The position numbers and the translations under genes are program-made. The notes under the pieces are model-generated. The model worked only from the letters and a program-made list of their open reading frames with translations, was not told where the DNA came from and did not search any database. From a virus, in IMG/VR virus record IMGVR_UViG_3300045988_038035, positions 1 to 41,732 of that record: 41,732 nucleotides of DNA; one strand, given 5' to 3'. Of this stretch, positions 1-6,442 are shown piece by piece; positions within the stretch are counted from its first letter, which is position 1, and every line of letters begins with the position of its first letter.

Positions 1-141
1 CTTTTTGAGATCTTCTGTCAAGTTCTCCACGCTGCGCTGCGCCGCATAAAGCTGCGTACTGGGGTCCTGCTGCTTGAGCAGCCGCGTTGCCTGCAACGCC
101 TGTGCCGCATTTCTCTGGCGCTTTACGATGGTGTCGAGCAC
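1..141. repeat. Terminal direct repeat, copy 1 (identical to 41592..41732)
   Basis: Base-by-base comparison of both ends. Identity starts at ctttttgagatc and ends at gtgtcgagcac. Confidence 0.97.
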
Positions 142-3100
142 ATCGATAGCTGTCTCCACATCACCGCTGTTTGCTGCATTGTTGTAGAGCGCCCAGCCAA
201 TCGCCGTGTTTTCCTTGCTAATTCCCTCTTTGGTGGAACTTTTCCACTTGTTCAGGGTCTTTTGCCAGCCTTCGGTTTTGATGCGGCTTTCTGCGTCACT
301 AATGGCCTGCTTGTCCGTATAGCGGTCGTAGGAGAACTCTCCTTTTGCCACCATTCGCTCCAACGTCGGTATCATTTCGTCCGGCGTGGCCTTTGCTTCC
401 AGCACCGTGCGGATCGTGCGGCTGACGTATTTGTCATCCGCCGTCTTCTTCGGTACCTGCACTTCGCGGTATGCACGCTCGCCCGCCGGGATATATCCGT
501 ACTTCTCTTTCAGCGCTTCGTAGTTTGCCTCAGGGATCTCGCGGGAGAATTGCGCGCCATTCACGCCGTTGACATTCCCGCCATTTTGGGGTACACTACC
601 ATTCGAAGCATTGGTGGACACCCCAACAGGGCGATTATTCGCTTTAGCTGTACCGTTTTGGTACTGAAGGGGCGGTGCCGATGCTTTATTTTTATTTTCA
701 TTAAGCTGGATGGAGTAGACAAACTCTCCGTCCGGCTTTTTTCTTACATTCGCCAGCAGGTCATACACCTGTCCGTCGATCTGCACGGTCTTGACGAAAT
801 ACTCCCAGCCGGTTAGGTTTTGATGCGCCTGCGATTTCTTTCCCTGCTCGGTTTTACCTCCGTTGTAGGTCGCGTTTTCTACAAGATCGAAGATGCTGCC
901 ATCCGCGCCGGTATTGATTTTCGCTTTCCAGCCCTTTTGAGAGGATTTTTTATCGCCGTATACGTTCTTGCGAAGGTCTGCTTCGTCAAACTTCGCATAA
1001 TAGGTGTTGTTGCCGTCGCTGAATTTGGCCGTGCGCCCCGCGTACTCGTTGCGCATGATGTCCATAAAGGCTTCCATGCGCTCCTTGTAGGACATCTTCT
1101 TAATGTCCTCGCCGGTCTCGTAGACCTCGATTCCGTCCTTGTTCTTTCCGACAAGCTCATAGCTCTCCCCGCTGTCCGAAAACACCGTGTTCTCGTCGCC
1201 GGTGTCCGGCTTGCGCCCTCTGCGTTCCTCCGCCGTCAGGCCGCGCCGCGCCGCAGCGTCCCGCGCCTCGATCTCTCCCGCCGTGTCGCGGTAGAGATCT
1301 CCCGGCAGTCTGCTGTCCCTCGCGTTTCTGTCAATGCTGTCGCGCAGGCTGAAATAATCCCACACGCGGTCGCCGTATTTTTCTTCCAGCTGGTCGCGTC
1401 TTTCGTCGAAGCGCACCCATTCCGGCGGATCCGGCTCGATCTGCTCCCATGTTTCCATGTCGACTTTCCCGCGCGGCACCGTCGGCGCCATGGCGTTCAG
1501 TTCTTCCATGCTGCGCATAAACTCGGGATCGTTTGCCTTCATCTGCTCATACTGCTCGCGCAGCCGCGCGCCTTCGCGTCTGGTTTCGGCGTCCCTGCCG
1601 TCATATCCCTCCTCGAGTTTTCTGTTCCAGTATTTCAGATTTGCCCCGGGTGTGAAGCCCTCTCTTTGCTGAATGGCGTGCTGTACCTCATGAGTGAGGG
1701 AATTCAGCAACGCCTCCGGTCTGTTTTTCAGGTCGCGGCTCAGTTCAATACTGTCGAACCTGCGGTTATACCCGCCGTTCTGCCCGCGCTCAAGCGTCTG
1801 GAACATTACATCCATATCTCTCATGTCCGGATAGGTGGCGAACAGCGCCGGCGCGTCCACCAGCTCGCCCAGCGTGGTGTAGTTGGGGATGGACTTTGCA
1901 GCCTCTTTCATTGTTTCCAATGTTAGCGCCCACTTCTCAAAATCGTCGCCAAACTCTCCGGTCAGCTTCTCGTATAGCGCCTCGTCGGCCTCTCCGCGCT
2001 CCGTGCTTCTCTGGTAGTCCGCAAGGTCTCTCCTCTGTTCGTCCGTCAGCTCGCGGTTGGTCAGCCTATCCCATGCATGGGTTTTCTCCCGCAGCTCCGT
2101 GTCGTAGTCATATAACCCAGATTCAAAGCGCAGCTTCATGCCGCTGTCGTCGGTTTCCCATCTCCATTTTCCGTCGGCGCCGCGGAACCAGCCCGTTTTC
2201 TGCCGGATCGTCTCAGCATCAGCCCCGTTTTTCTCCATCTCTTTCGCCGTATTAAGCGCTGCTTTGTCTGCATTCTTCGCTTTCTCGCCTGCATAGCTGA
2301 ATTTTTCGCGTACCGGGCCCGTTCCGCTTGGCGGTGCGCGCGAGTTTTCACGCGCAACGGTTTCACTCTCCACCTTGATATGTGCAAGAAGGAATGCTGC
2401 CGCATCGCTGATCTCGCTGTCGGCGAAAATGTTCATATCGCCGAGGCTGTCGCAAACCATCTCTTCCCAAATCTCCTGCGCCGTCATTTCGGTGCCGGCA
2501 TAAGCGTCTGCGTATGCCGTACAGAGGAATCCAACTTCTCCGCTGGTAAAGGTCTTATCGATGCGCGTGCGTACCTCGTCCAGATCAACTTCGCCCTTTG
2601 CGATCATATCATGTCCGGCCTCATGCCGCATGATCTGGTACGACGTAAATTCCGGATGGTCTGCACGGATAAACACGCGGTCGCCCGAAACGTAGCCGCG
2701 CGCCTGGAACGTTTTCCCGTTCTTGCTGCGGAACGTCAGATTATTTCCGGCAAAAAACGTCACGCGCAGGCCGCGCTCTTTGGCGAGGTCCTTCGCCTTG
2801 CGCATTTCCTCCGTCTCGTTCTTCACAAGATAGACGCTGTCATTGACCGCGCCTCTGCCGATGCCGAAGCTCGCAGTGCTTACTTTTTCTCCATAATCGA
2901 GCGCAGCTGCTTCGCTGTCTGCGAAGTGTCTCCCTTTCTTCCGGCTCTGATCTCGTCCTGTGCTTTCTTCCACGCCTCGTACTTCTCCGCGGGGATTCGC
3001 ACCGTTATCCCGTTCGCTGCCGTCGCGTAAATGTACTGCTTCTCCATGTTCGACTCCTTCCTGCTGCGCGTATTCTGCGCGCAACTCGTCCATTGTCACC

Positions 3101-5175
3101 TCTCCTGTCTCGAGGGCAAGGCGGTTGTCAGTTACATACTTGTCAAAGCCGGTCGCCTGCGCCTCTGCGCCTGCGATCTGCTGCTTTGCTGCAATATAAT
3201 CCGTGTTTGGGGCGACCGCCGTTCCATCAGCAGCAGTGTACCCATTCGTTAGCATGTCGTCAAGCACGATCTCGAGTGTTTTTGCCGCTTTGACGTTCTC
3301 CTGCCCATTATTGTTGATAATGCGCTGCGCGGCATCAATGATTTGCGTGCGCGTCAGGCCCTCGTCCATCGCCTTGCGCATGGCAGGTGTCTCGAATATC
3401 TGATTGTTTCTCTGGTATCCGTTTGCCGTCCGCTGCCGCGCGCCCTTCTGCTGCCCGCGCGAAAGGCTTATATCTGCGATACCGGCGATCTGCTCTGCTG
3501 CCGCGCTGTAATAACTGTGCAGCTCTGGGTGGTCGAACTGGAAAGCGTTCACGTTTCTGCCCGATACGTTTTCCTTCGTGCGGCTGTCAATGTGCTCGCC
3601 CGTTCCCGCTGCCGCCTTCGCGTCGTTCTGCCCTGCGACATAGCCTGCATAGGCCGTCTCATTCGTCGGGTTCGGGTTCGCCTTGCCCTCTACGCCCGCG
3701 TTGTAGGCGGGCAGGAAGTCCGCGACGTGCTGCGCCGTGTCCTTGCCCTCCTGGTACGAGCCGCGCATCGCCTTGCGCCCGTTCTCGCCGATCATATCGT
3801 TGTAGCGGGCAAACAGCCGGTCGGAAATGCCGTTCACAACATCTGCATCGCTGCTGCGCGGCCCCTGCGGCAGCTCCGTGCGGCTGTCGTAATAGCCGCG
3901 GTTTGTGAGCGCTTCCACGCCGCCGCCAAGCCCGCCGAGAATGCCGCCGACAAGGAAGTCATTCAGCACTTCCGCCGCTTCCAGCTCGCTGTAGCTCCCG
4001 CCGAGCGTCTTGCCGTTGTAGATCATTTGCAGCGCGGGCTGAACAAGATCCTCAAGCACTTCCTCGCCGCCCTCTTCAAGGAACGAGAGCACGAGCTTTC
4101 CTGCAGCGCTTTTCGTGAGGTTGCCCATCGTGCGTTCAATGACATCATCAAGGAAGCCCTTGCCGAACATCTTGCGGAACGGCCCCGCCGCGTTGCCGAT
4201 CTTCTCGGTCGCCACGCTCAGCGCGCCGCTCGCAAAGCCATAGTTGACCTGCTGCTCGTGCGTTGCGCCCTGTCTGCGCGCTTCCTGCGCGCTTCCGCCC
4301 GTGCTGCGGACAAACATCGCAGGGAGTGCGCTGCCGCCCGTCAGAAGGCCAAGAGCCGCGTCCATGCCCATCTGCGCGCCCGCAACGCCGACGTCGACTG
4401 CAAGCCGCCCCGCGCCGCCAAGATCGCGCTTTGCCTTGCTGATGTCCTTTGCGCCGCTGTCGGCGAGACGGTCGGCGGCCTTGTAGATGTTGCCCGCCGT
4501 GCGCTCCACCTCACCGCCCTCGCCGTATGCCTGCAGGTATGCGGCTTTTTTTGCTTCCAGCGCCGTAATGACGTTGCGCGCCGTGTCGCGCTCAGATGCC
4601 GTGCTGCTCGGGTCTGCCAGCACGGCGCGCTGTGCCTTGATGTCCTGATCCCACAGCGCAATTTCTTTCTCGGCTTCCTCGCGCTGTTGCAATCCAACGC
4701 CTACCTGCTTCATACCCACAGCGTTGACAAATCCCGAACCGTAGGTCTTTACTGCGCCCTTTGCCGCGTTCCCGACGCGCTGCGCGACCGTCTGCGGCTT
4801 CACGTCCCTCACGTGCTGCGCAAGGGCTTCCTTGCTCTGGTACGGCTTTGCGTTTTGCTGCTGCAAAGCGCCGCTATTGAGCCCCTGCATGATGGGGCTT
4901 TGCCACTTGGGCGTCACGACATTCTGCTGCACGGTCGGCTGCTGGCGGAACATCGGAGACGTTGCCTTCTTCTCCTGTGCCGTCATCTTTGGCGTAGAAA
5001 CAGACCGATAATAAGTGTAAATCTGCTCCCGCTTGTCTTGCTTTACTCTCGCAGGCTTTTGCGCGGGTGCGTAGGAAGAGGGAGCGGGGCTGCTGACCGC
5101 AGCAGCCGCCCCACTTTTTTTCTGATACTCACGATATCCCTTGATAGAATCCAGCTTTTCCTTTTTGATCGGCAT
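1..5175 (-). CDS. Giant multidomain virion-associated (polyvalent-type) protein, 5' part (1,725 codons). Continues across the circular junction into 41591..39420, for 2,448 aa in total.
   Basis: My own minus-strand translation. ATG at 5175, GGAGGT at 5181-5186, in-frame TAA just upstream. The frame stays open to nt 1 and is the same frame as track ORF 39420..41732 once the 141-nt overlap is superimposed. It is absent from the track because no stop lies in the window on this side. Motifs: HEAGH (2611-2625), HEVQH (1678-1692), and a Gly-rich hydrophobic stretch (4309-4419). Confidence 0.8.
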   Translation of the reverse strand, partial: MPIKKEKLDSIKGYREYQKKSGAAAAVSSPAPSSYAPAQKPARVKQDKREQIYTYYRSVSTPKMTAQEKKATSPMFRQQPTVQQNVVTPKWQSPIMQGLNSGALQQQNAKPYQSKEALAQHVRDVKPQTVAQRVGNAAKGAVKTYGSGFVNAVGMKQVGVGLQQREEAEKEIALWDQDIKAQRAVLADPSSTASERDTARNVITALEAKKAAYLQAYGEGGEVERTAGNIYKAADRLADSGAKDISKAKRDLGGAGRLAVDVGVAGAQMGMDAALGLLTGGSALPAMFVRSTGGSAQEARRQGATHEQQVNYGFASGALSVATEKIGNAAGPFRKMFGKGFLDDVIERTMGNLTKSAAGKLVLSFLEEGGEEVLEDLVQPALQMIYNGKTLGGSYSELEAAEVLNDFLVGGILGGLGGGVEALTNRGYYDSRTELPQGPRSSDADVVNGISDRLFARYNDMIGENGRKAMRGSYQEGKDTAQHVADFLPAYNAGVEGKANPNPTNETAYAGYVAGQNDAKAAAGTGEHIDSRTKENVSGRNVNAFQFDHPELHSYYSAAAEQIAGIADISLSRGQQKGARQRTANGYQRNNQIFETPAMRKAMDEGLTRTQIIDAAQRIINNNGQENVKAAKTLEIVLDDMLTNGYTAADGTAVAPNTDYIAAKQQIAGAEAQATGFDKYVTDNRLALETGEVTMDELRAEYAQQEGVEHGEAVHLRDGSERDNGANPRGEVRGVEESTGRDQSRKKGRHFADSEAAALDYGEKVSTASFGIGRGAVNDSVYLVKNETEEMRKAKDLAKERGLRVTFFAGNNLTFRSKNGKTFQARGYVSGDRVFIRADHPEFTSYQIMRHEAGHDMIAKGEVDLDEVRTRIDKTFTSGEVGFLCTAYADAYAGTEMTAQEIWEEMVCDSLGDMNIFADSEISDAAAFLLAHIKVESETVARENSRAPPSGTGPVREKFSYAGEKAKNADKAALNTAKEMEKNGADAETIRQKTGWFRGADGKWRWETDDSGMKLRFESGLYDYDTELREKTHAWDRLTNRELTDEQRRDLADYQRSTERGEADEALYEKLTGEFGDDFEKWALTLETMKEAAKSIPNYTTLGELVDAPALFATYPDMRDMDVMFQTLERGQNGGYNRRFDSIELSRDLKNRPEALLNSLTHEVQHAIQQREGFTPGANLKYWNRKLEEGYDGRDAETRREGARLREQYEQMKANDPEFMRSMEELNAMAPTVPRGKVDMETWEQIEPDPPEWVRFDERRDQLEEKYGDRVWDYFSLRDSIDRNARDSRLPGDLYRDTAGEIEARDAAARRGLTAEERRGRKPDTGDENTVFSDSGESYELVGKNKDGIEVYETGEDIKKMSYKERMEAFMDIMRNEYAGRTAKFSDGNNTYYAKFDEADLRKNVYGDKKSSQKGWKAKINTGADGSIFDLVENATYNGGKTEQGKKSQAHQNLTGWEYFVKTVQIDGQVYDLLANVRKKPDGEFVYSIQLNENKNKASAPPLQYQNGTAKANNRPVGVSTNASNGSVPQNGGNVNGVNGAQFSREIPEANYEALKEKYGYIPAGERAYREVQVPKKTADDKYVSRTIRTVLEAKATPDEMIPTLERMVAKGEFSYDRYTDKQAISDAESRIKTEGWQKTLNKWKSSTKEGISKENTAIGWALYNNAANSGDVETAIDVLDTIVKRQRNAAQALQATRLLKQQDPSTQLYAAQRSVENLTEDLKK
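2880..3047 (-). CDS. 55-aa ORF embedded in another frame of the giant ORF (MEKQYIYATAANGITVRIPAEKYEAWKKAQDEIRAGRKGDTSQTAKQLRSIMEKK)
   Basis: AGGAAGGAG lies 6 nt before the ATG. GC3 by hand count is about 75% in this frame versus about 40% in the giant-ORF frame over the same nt. The ORF ends GAG AAA AAG TAA. Confidence 0.35.
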   Translation of the reverse strand: MEKQYIYATAANGITVRIPAEKYEAWKKAQDEIRAGRKGDTSQTAKQLRSIMEKK

Positions 5176-5188
5176 AATTTACCTCCGC

Positions 5189-6442
5189 TTATTCAAGCCA
5201 TTCGTCCGGGTCATAGCCAAAGTGGCTGAACAGATATCGCGCCTCCGCATCCGTCAACTTGCCTTGATCTGCATACACCGCAATCGTGTTTGCAATGCCT
5301 GTATTGCTACCGGTCTGCGTCTTCATCTTCTCTAAGCTCGATAATATTCTTGAAGCGCTACTGCTGAGCCCTCCCCCGTCATTTCCACCGTTCTGACTTT
5401 CCAGCCAGTTTTCATAGTCGGAATAGAGCCCGCTCGACGATGTAAAACCGTACTTCTGGTAGTTCGCCTTCTGTGCAAGCCAGCTCTTGGGGTTTCCGCT
5501 CGCCTGCGCCGCAGCAAACAGGCCTTCATAGTCCATCGTGCCGCCGGAATAGCCTCTCGACCCGCCGGAGCTTCTGCTGCCGCCGCTTGCTTTTTTCGCC
5601 GCCTGCAGTGCGGCCTGCTGCAATTTATACTGCCATTCCGCGTCGTAGCGCGCGTCCTCGATGGCGTCGCGTTCCTTCTGATAGTCGTACTTGAGCTTGT
5701 CCTGCTCCTTCTGATAGGCAAGGCTGTCGGCGTACTGCTGATCGCCCACCTGATCGCGCGCGAGCTGATAAAGATAGTCTCGGTTGCTGAGCCAGCGGCT
5801 GTAGTTGTTGTCCTCAAGGCCGATAAGCGTGTTGAGATTCTGCCGGTCGAGGTTGATGCCGTCCATATACATGCCGTAGGCAAGCTGCTGCAGCTCGGGG
5901 ATCTTGTCGGTCATCTGGCTCATCTGGTAGTCGCTCGCCTGCTGACTTGCCGTGACCGCCGCCGTGGACGGCATGCCGCCGGTCATCACAGCCGCCTTGC
6001 CGAGCACGTCCTCTGCGCTGCGGTCTGCCTCGCGCGTATACTGCTTGCGGTACTGCTGATAGAGCGGGTCGCTTACCGCATCGTAAGAGAACGGCTTGCG
6101 GTTGAGCATCGCGTCCAGCGCCGCGCTGATCTTGCCGTCTGCATCGTAGTTGTAGCTGCTCTCGCCCAGCTTGTCGAGCCAGCTCGTGTCAGCTTTCGGC
6201 GCGCTCGGCTGCCGCAGCGTTTCGCCGCTGTCGAGCTTGATGTAATCGCTGCCGTCAACGCCGCCGCTGTACTGGTATTTCGAGCGGATCCTTTCTGCCG
6301 CGTCGTGCGCAGCCTGCTGCCCCGCCTTGTCGCCCGCAGCGTACGCCCTGTCGTAGTTTTCGGTATACTGTCTGATGAGATCAAGGTCGTTCTGATCGGT
6401 AATCAGGCTCAGGTCGGTGTTTTTATGCTTAAAATCTGCCAT
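5189..6442 (-). CDS. Virion protein, Q/Y/G-rich (possible internal/ejection protein)
   Basis: Track ORF of 417 aa. SD GAGGGGAAG precedes the ATG. Sits in the late structural operon. No motif recognised. Confidence 0.75.
   Translation of the reverse strand: MADFKHKNTDLSLITDQNDLDLIRQYTENYDRAYAAGDKAGQQAAHDAAERIRSKYQYSGGVDGSDYIKLDSGETLRQPSAPKADTSWLDKLGESSYNYDADGKISAALDAMLNRKPFSYDAVSDPLYQQYRKQYTREADRSAEDVLGKAAVMTGGMPSTAAVTASQQASDYQMSQMTDKIPELQQLAYGMYMDGINLDRQNLNTLIGLEDNNYSRWLSNRDYLYQLARDQVGDQQYADSLAYQKEQDKLKYDYQKERDAIEDARYDAEWQYKLQQAALQAAKKASGGSRSSGGSRGYSGGTMDYEGLFAAAQASGNPKSWLAQKANYQKYGFTSSSGLYSDYENWLESQNGGNDGGGLSSSASRILSSLEKMKTQTGSNTGIANTIAVYADQGKLTDAEARYLFSHFGYDPDEWLE

Follow-up and report, generated by a model that had tools for sequence, protein, structure and literature searches.

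Following up a first-pass annotation of a 41,732-nucleotide (nt) stretch of viral DNA (IMG/VR record IMGVR_UViG_3300045988_038035, positions 1 to 41,732; this whole stretch is hereafter called the window), we analysed an out-of-phase segment inside a giant open reading frame (ORF). We consider it probable that this segment is a genuine, long-lived nested gene of 55 codons, lying wholly inside a giant polyvalent-protein gene, and that the overlap represents true dual coding. Ribosomes coming from the giant gene's own start would read through the overlap and produce a 56-residue, mostly disordered linker, and the small protein would be made separately, by initiation at its own Shine–Dalgarno (SD) sequence and ATG. 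In many relatives, the small protein probably derives from a transcript that starts at a sigma-70-type promoter within the giant ORF, 17–49 nt upstream of the ATG. Frameshifting would not be required. The elements on which this reading is built are as follows.

1..5178, minus strand: giant ORF, 1726 stop-free codons in the window; it runs past the window start, and its first ATG is at 5175.
3062..3054, minus strand: Shine–Dalgarno sequence AGGAAGGAG, 6 nt before the nested ATG.
3047..2880, minus strand, +1 frame of the giant ORF: nested small gene, with ATG at 3047, 55 codons and TAA at 2882..2880.
3048..2881, minus strand: giant-frame reading of the overlap, HGEAVHLRDGSERDNGANPRGEVRGVEESTGRDQSRKKGRHFADSEAAALDYGEKV, a linker rich in G, E, D and R and without stop codons.
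2891..2880, minus strand: end of the nested gene, GAG AAA AAG TAA, suggested by the first-pass annotation as a -1 slip site.
2401..2879, minus strand, giant frame: HExxH domain, with HEAGH at 2625..2611.

The ORF, the ribosome-binding site, ATG 3047 and GAG AAA AAG TAA all lie where the first-pass annotation had placed them, and since 3047..2880 falls wholly within 5178..1 in the +1 frame, the arrangement is that of a same-strand embedded gene. Its product has 55 amino acids (aa), MEKQYIYATAANGITVRIPAEKYEAWKKAQDEIRAGRKGDTSQTAKQLRSIMEKK (MEKQYIY...IMEKK*). Base composition already sets the overlap apart: the GC content at third codon positions (GC3) is 0.41 in the giant frame (3048..2881), 0.745 in the small frame and 0.49 in the third frame, in agreement with the earlier hand counts of about 40% and 75% for the first two. 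The flanks had been put at around 80%, which proved too high, as the giant-frame GC3 is 0.61 over the 100 codons upstream, 0.72 over the 100 codons downstream and 0.71 over the entire ORF. Among windows of the same size (56 codons) along the giant ORF, the overlap stands at the 0.6th percentile of giant-frame GC3, and it shows the greatest frame contrast found anywhere in that ORF. Dual coding predicts the peptide stretches QYIYATAANGITVR, IPAEK and YEAWK from the small protein, and DGSER, GEVR, GVEESTGR and HFADSEAAALDYGEK from the linker.

The small protein belongs to a family. A search with the 55-aa peptide returned P0024, identical to it, together with another 17 clusters of 55–75 aa, with expectation values (E) of 1e-10 to 1e-27 and the consensus M..K.YIYATAANGLxVRIPADxYPxWKKAQDEIRAG...QT.EQLRSLMEKK. 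The family core, YIYATAANGxxVRIPxxxYxxWKxAQDxIRAG, was matched significantly, including the invariant AANG, VRIP, W and Q. A profile search against 1.84 billion representatives extended the family to 128 members, 39 of them at E up to 1e-10; about half have 31–76 aa, and the remainder are larger proteins, mostly of 170–480 aa, that contain the domain. The 17 larger members that we inspected are mostly membrane or zinc-ribbon proteins, with a peptidase in none. The small proteins have diverged to about 45% identity and occur in phages and conjugative elements. An AlphaFold2 model of the window's small protein consists of a beta-hairpin and two helices, with a mean predicted local distance difference test (pLDDT) score of 73.5.

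From genomes, viral contigs and metagenomes we gathered loci representing 84 distinct DNA versions of the small ORF. In 76 of the 84, it is nested in the +1 frame of a large ORF of 600 to >3000 aa, with the host frame open; five versions (L012, L019, L023, L024 and L032) are an in-frame domain of another protein, two (L003, L170) are indel variants, and one (L005) is a stand-alone gene on a conjugative-element contig. The nested ORFs of these 76 versions sit before the same HExxH metallopeptidase-like domain. Most of the aligned nested copies (21/25) run directly after the small stop into S.ASLGI.GGS...GL.V.FF.GGNL...VRADHP.FTADQLMRHE.GHD.IAKGEID, the others having a variant opening (VY.G...; 3/25) or an insertion ahead of the HExxH domain (1/25). 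The giant-frame sequence upstream of the small gene varies from locus to locus. How closely conservation follows the small gene is illustrated by locus L001, whose protein is 44% identical overall to that of the window; the DNA is 79% identical across the small ORF only, and L001 retains ATG, peptide and TAA in register.

The giant-frame reading of the overlap also recurs in homologues, as 'VHLRDGGERD.G....GQVS.VE..GRDQS', and this calls for caution. The first-pass annotation had proposed to look in homologues for protein-level conservation of that reading as a sign against a frame switch. Homologues do show EHGEAVHLRDGSERDNG..., but as a refutation this is misleading, because the apparent conservation of the linker arises from the other frame, which holds the DNA constant.

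Several of the loci carry features of their own. On L005 (Logan SRR24639048, 1..14470), genes for MobL, DUF3991-Toprim, a type IV secretion system coupling protein, an ADP-ribosylglycohydrolase and a DUF6508 protein lie beside the stand-alone copy, with no peptidase homologues among these neighbours. Three contigs of metagenome-assembled genomes (MAGs) each hold two paralogues of the small domain, 15–30 kb apart (pairs L018/L019, L016/L023 and L024/L031); in each pair, one paralogue is nested in a giant ORF and the other is in frame in a different protein, transmembrane segments being predicted in L023 and L024. On L170 (OHGQ01003841.1, 3.4 kb), from a close relative, a deletion takes away the end of the small gene, stop included, and the next ~15 giant-frame codons. 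This disrupts the giant frame and puts the small ORF in one frame with the peptidase ORF (...LRSIM|DSVYLVKNE...); with a single contig to go by, either a true variant or an assembly error may be the cause. Among the contigs that we looked up, calls of the small protein were limited to three situations: a giant ORF cut by the contig end, a giant start placed downstream of the small gene, or a small gene standing alone.

Substitution patterns carry the argument further. All 62 close IMG/VR relatives align over 3500..2580 without a gap, at 93.9–97.7% identity, so the A5 run and the 3045–3050 junction are correct as assembled. Counted by giant-frame codon positions 1/2/3, the polymorphic sites among these relatives number 17/8/44 in the upstream flank and 10/6/32 in the downstream flank versus 14/5/7 in the overlap (Fisher p = 7e-4), which places the frame switch suspected earlier beyond chance. 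The changes within the overlap amount to 17 synonymous and 9 non-synonymous in the small frame, and to 6 and 20, respectively, in the giant frame. When the entire giant ORF was scanned, a robust loss of third-position dominance was seen solely at 3078..2854. Across 26 non-redundant nested copies, pairwise differences at small-ORF positions 1/2/3 are 0.27/0.23/0.48 in the conserved first half; in the last third they are 0.56/0.50/0.55, with no single-frame periodicity. As judged from these patterns, the small frame is under purifying selection.

The giant frame is constrained as well. In a synonymous resampling that kept the small protein fixed and redrew its codons from the codon usage of the host ORF, the probability of an open giant frame averaged 0.054 (0.20 for the window), so that 1.4 open copies would be expected; all 26 non-redundant nested copies are stop-free in this frame. 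With the third frame as a control, 2 copies are open and 2.0 are expected, and the frame corresponding to the giant one is closed in all six stand-alone or in-frame copies. Judging by these counts, selection against stops keeps the giant frame open. In an AlphaFold2 model of the giant-frame segment 3198..2401, pLDDT is below 50 at residues 48–91, accounting for the greater part of the overlap, whose final ~15 residues are ordered; in this model, the giant-frame reading of the small gene is a disordered linker passing into the beginning of the peptidase-like domain.

The nested ORF has its own predicted translation-initiation signals. An SD match of at least 5 nt, located 3–18 nt before the start, is present in 22 of 26 nested copies compared with 8% of the out-of-frame ATGs in the same giant ORFs, and 25 of the 26 copies start with ATG. 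At several loci a small-frame stop lies just 1–2 codons before the ATG, and ribosomes therefore cannot enter the small frame from upstream at those loci; an entry from the giant frame by a +1 shift is in this way ruled out at many loci. Within the spacer between SD and ATG, window position 3053 is T in the window and C in 62 of 62 relatives, a difference that in the giant frame changes GTC (Val) to GCC (Ala), as in P0001 and P0004.

At about half of the loci, these signals are preceded by an internal sigma-70-type promoter (TTGnnn-N17-TATAAT, typically TTGCAA-N17-TGnTATAAT) that ends 17–49 nt before the ATG. Scored with weights that are approximate values from general knowledge, the promoter exceeds the 99th percentile of background windows in 13 of 25 loci. 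Relatives with a strong site include L026 and L031. Its -10 hexamer occurs in two giant-frame phases, read as Y-N in eight loci and as G-I-I in seven; it therefore represents a DNA-level signal and not a protein motif.

Other ways of coupling the two frames were considered and set aside. Termination–reinitiation at the TAA lacks a suitable start codon, there being none over or next to the stop (the sequence is AAG TAA G, and GTA does not serve as a start). Reinitiation at the next giant-frame ATG (2805) is disfavoured by the position of the GGAGG, just 2 nt away, and by the retention of this ATG in only about half of the loci. A terminator-like hairpin, GCGCGGCCTGCGCGT, with a T-run at 2776..2762 (minus strand), lies ~100 nt past the nested stop, within the peptidase coding region; such sites are no commoner than in shuffled sequences, the T-run encodes a conserved FF motif, and the hairpin is probably non-functional.

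We regard the small gene as likely the older of the two readings, because the same domain occurs stand-alone and in frame in other proteins. The giant ORF would then have overprinted the small gene, probably when the upstream gene lost its stop and became fused to the peptidase gene. An unfused, three-gene version is found on L025 (WRJA01000123.1, an Oscillospiraceae MAG, 1..1000): after the end of the upstream ORF at 659 comes a spacer of 127 nt containing two small hairpins, then an SD and the small gene at 787..954; for the large ORF, the sole usable start is ATG 861, overlapping the invariant Trp codon. The stop of the upstream ORF shares its frame with the downstream large ORF. This layout fits an ancestral pair of partly overlapping genes that was later fused upstream by read-through of the small gene's first ~26 codons, and such an ancestral overlap would account for the two-frame constraint in the second half of the present one. 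The first-pass annotation had listed a lost stop fusing three genes among its explanations; as an origin this is plausible in view of L025, but it describes the history of the locus and not its expression.

Several points weigh against the nested-gene reading. The production of both proteins and the firing of the promoter are what we infer from sequence. The window's own promoter match is weak, with a score of 7.9 and a background fraction of 0.044; the two candidates are as follows.

3119..3092, minus strand: weak candidate promoter, TTGCCC-N16-GACAAT.
3099..3072, minus strand: weak candidate promoter, GTGACA-N16-CAGAAT.

The small gene of the window phage may thus rely on internal initiation on the giant mRNA, where it would face competition from elongating ribosomes. 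The loci are akin to each other, so that the resampling and the codon-position statistics overstate the number of independent observations, and the nested set is partly defined by its openness; the fair count, taken over the first two locus sets, is 26 open versus 6 closed copies, all six closed ones standing in other contexts. The small protein has no match in Pfam or NCBIfam and no Foldseek match against the Protein Data Bank (PDB); its only PHROG match is weak (E 1.4e-3), to a PHROG without known function. Finally, the peptidase assignment of the downstream domain is drawn from its HExxH motif and the literature. Despite the caveats of kinship and of how the nested set was defined, the contrast between the nested copies and the closed controls remains large.

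The alternatives have to be weighed against this body of evidence. The one favoured by the motif at the end of the small gene is a programmed -1 frameshift on G AAA AAG, by which the small domain would be fused to the peptidase-containing remainder. Passing from the small frame to the giant frame is indeed a -1 shift; most copies have AAG as their final sense codon, and ~40% of copies read A AAG directly before the stop. Moreover, short versions of the L026 type have their sole strong promoter past the ATG annotated for the large ORF, so that reaching the large frame from the small-gene transcript requires a route of some kind, and the L170 deletion contig does fuse the two frames. The first-pass annotation had described a dnaX-type site, A AAA AAG, joining ...IMEKK to VSTASF... 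and thereby to a 1,690-aa remainder. The actual heptamer is G AAA AAG, and 960 codons follow the TAA in the window, with 1,828 codons to the stop in the relative L098. The site is not conserved, many copies reading G AAG TAA and others GAG TAA, AGG TAG, CTG TAA, GAT TAG or CAG TAA. RNAalifold, applied to 19 loci, predicted 0 pairs after the stop and hence no conserved structure, and the window's own fold at this place is unremarkable against shuffled sequences (z = -0.8). An in-frame fusion of the small domain to the peptidase is present in 0 of the 17 larger members inspected from the 128, the only fusions being L003 and L170. Nor would a frameshift account for the maintained absence of giant-frame stops over the first half of the small gene. 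We therefore judge the frameshift unlikely and give it a slim chance. An artefact or accident, whether compensating indels, sequencing errors or a +1 ORF arising as a by-product of the Gly/Glu/Asp/Arg-rich linker, whose G-rich first positions mimic a high GC3, has a probability that we put close to nil. Such a linker does lift GC3 in the +1 frame, the chance of an open giant frame is 0.20 when the window is taken alone, and nearby indels occur in two low-quality assemblies, L003, a Logan contig with several broken genes, and L004, with 2.3x coverage. These indels trace to the error-prone assemblies, however, and the two compensating indels that had been considered for the window are contradicted by the 62 gap-free contigs and by the retention of the two-frame layout in homologues down to 44% protein identity. 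The existence of the family outside giant ORFs, the predominance of synonymous substitutions in the small frame and the conservation of SD and ATG likewise speak against a chance ORF; the same three lines of evidence strongly support the embedded small gene that the first-pass annotation had listed among its possibilities.

Another reading retains the nested gene and adds a third product, a shorter peptidase-containing protein that would be translated off the internal-promoter transcript from a start within the overlap, corresponding to the ancestral start of the peptidase gene.

2973..2971, minus strand, giant frame: candidate internal start GTG, overlapping the codon of the invariant Trp26 (TGG 2972..2970) of the nested gene.

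In the large ORF of L025, the only start-capable codon before the domain is ATG 861, at this very Trp position. In L026, a strong promoter (5946..5974) lies downstream of the annotated SD-less ATG 5841, and GTG 6075 has an AAGGAG 11 nt upstream; since this is the sole strong promoter, an internal start may still be in use. The lack of single-frame periodicity in the second half of the overlap, together with the ordered last ~15 giant-frame residues, would be expected if both frames were coding before the fusion. Yet, although most copies have GTG or ATG at the Trp position, 8 of 74 nested versions have CTG, and because the codons before Trp mostly end in A or G, GTG or ATG arises without selection for a start, so this count does not discriminate. 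The SD-like GGAG, for its part, is dictated by IPAE/IPAD, residues that are conserved in the small protein. We hold this three-product reading to be doubtful, with a small chance of being correct, and retain the two-product nested gene as our preferred explanation.

In the alignment of nested copies, R-H-E-x-G-H is almost invariant, and the HExxH domain is modelled by AlphaFold2 with pLDDT 85–97. It is consistent with the description of the zincin-like metallopeptidase (MPTase) of polyvalent proteins (PMC5512222). The best Foldseek matches of the domain against the PDB are the zinc proteases IrrE/PprI, at a non-significant E of 0.23; a PDB profile search returned nothing relevant, and Pfam gave no match. 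With low confidence, we suggest a joint action of the small protein and the neighbouring peptidase module, in which the small protein might be a regulator or partner. A more elaborate scenario, to which we assign a modest chance at best, would have the cassette of promoter, SD and small gene serve as an expression boundary, with three products, the small protein being made at a different time and acting in trans on the metallopeptidase, for example as an inhibitor or 'immunity' factor that restrains autoprocessing of the effector in the producing cell.

The giant ORF has Pfam matches to LPD23 (E 1.3e-22) and LPD3 (E 2.2e-6), both passing the Pfam cut-off; LPD stands for 'large polyvalent protein associated domains', and polyvalent proteins were described by Iyer et al. 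2017 (PMC5512222). On the same strand, upstream of the giant ORF, lie genes for a terminase, a P22-like portal, a capsid protein, a collagen-like fibre and an endosialidase-chaperone fibre protein, and the window therefore belongs to a podovirus-like phage. By its domains and position, the giant ORF, which closes the structural module, is a predicted polyvalent-protein gene of a phage; in the relative L098 it exceeds 2417 aa. The phage is frequent in metagenomes of the human gut: IMG/VR contains 62 close relatives and the metagenome collection >50 (the two sets partly overlap in contigs; combined matches >100). Searches of GenBank phages with blastn and tblastn and of PLSDB plasmids with tblastn found no annotated relative and no cultured representative.

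The giant ORF is also mosaic. Over window positions 2330..680 (minus strand), only ~9 of the 62 close relatives align, compared with 45–62 over most of the flanks. Phages that are otherwise near-identical thus exchange the central part of the giant protein, with LPD23 and LPD3, as a module; P0005 and P0002 part from the window sequence directly after ...VESETVA.E. In P0021 (454 aa, on a 26-kb Logan contig), the module upstream of the nested gene (window ~3370..3200; IIDAA..LTNGY) is joined directly to the far-end module (~500..1; ..AFSYRSESD..LLNNAANSGD..), which implies that the block consisting of the nested gene, the peptidase and ~850 aa acts like an insertable cassette. In its upstream portion, the giant ORF has repeated indels among close relatives, at ~3853..3858, 3894..3895 and 4320..4351 (minus strand), where as many as 67 gaps were counted.

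Standard gene callers skip genes that lie wholly inside another gene on the same strand. A common gut phage here carries an unannotated, strongly conserved gene. If our reading holds, the locus represents an unusually clean and much-replicated case of dual coding, kept through deep divergence in phages and conjugative elements, and its stand-alone, in-frame and unfused versions are natural controls that make it a good system for studying how overlaps originate by gene fusion and how two frames share constraint. It would also add a component to the biology of polyvalent injected effectors, a small gene tied to one clade of a hub peptidase domain, for which a processing role is only predicted. 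A more general warning is that conservation of a host-frame linker across homologues can be a by-product of selection on the other frame.

The locus can be set against known systems. As in the polyvalent proteins described previously (PMC5512222), the host is a giant multidomain protein with LPD23, LPD3 and an HExxH, putatively zincin-like domain, encoded beside the virion structural genes, and the nested gene, like polyvalent proteins, is also found in loci with conjugation genes (MobL, Toprim and coupling protein in L005). A word search of that paper found the terms frameshift, overlapping and internal promoter absent, and literature searches for overlap or frameshift in polyvalent proteins returned nothing relevant; as far as the word search shows, a nested gene before one MPTase clade is not part of its description. 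With the -1 sites of dnaX and insertion sequence (IS) elements, the locus shares an A-rich Lys-Lys stretch by a stop at a two-frame junction, the downstream frame being -1. In contrast to those sites, G AAA AAG is unconserved here, there is neither a conserved stimulatory structure nor a properly spaced internal SD, and the 0-frame is a complete small gene that appears to be independently initiated.

Overprinted genes, such as phiX174 E within D and B within A, are cases of same-strand dual coding in which one frame has a normal signature and the other an atypical one (PMC8227390, PMC3494269). The same holds here, one frame having the usual codon-usage and substitution signature and the other being atypical in composition. 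Classical overprinting, however, places a new small protein inside an old gene and is usually put down to genome compression, whereas here a large ORF seems to cover an old small gene, in a ~43-kb double-stranded DNA phage and in conjugative elements, where compression is no obvious pressure. A further parallel is offered by the Rz/Rz1 spanins of phage lambda and its relatives, in which a small gene lies within a larger one on the same strand, in the +1 frame and with its own start, both products being functional (PMC6139136, PMC5295617). The nested small ORF described here is likewise on the same strand, in the +1 frame and provided with its own start signals, and, as the Rz and Rz1 products act together, we take the same as a working guess for the small protein and its host. 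The two systems differ in that the host gene here encodes a virion-delivered polyvalent protein of 2,400+ aa and not a lysis protein, with no sequence kinship to spanins. Unlike in Rz/Rz1, moreover, the nested gene seems to be the older partner, the host frame reads as a low-complexity linker, and many copies carry a promoter–SD–ATG cassette inside the host ORF.

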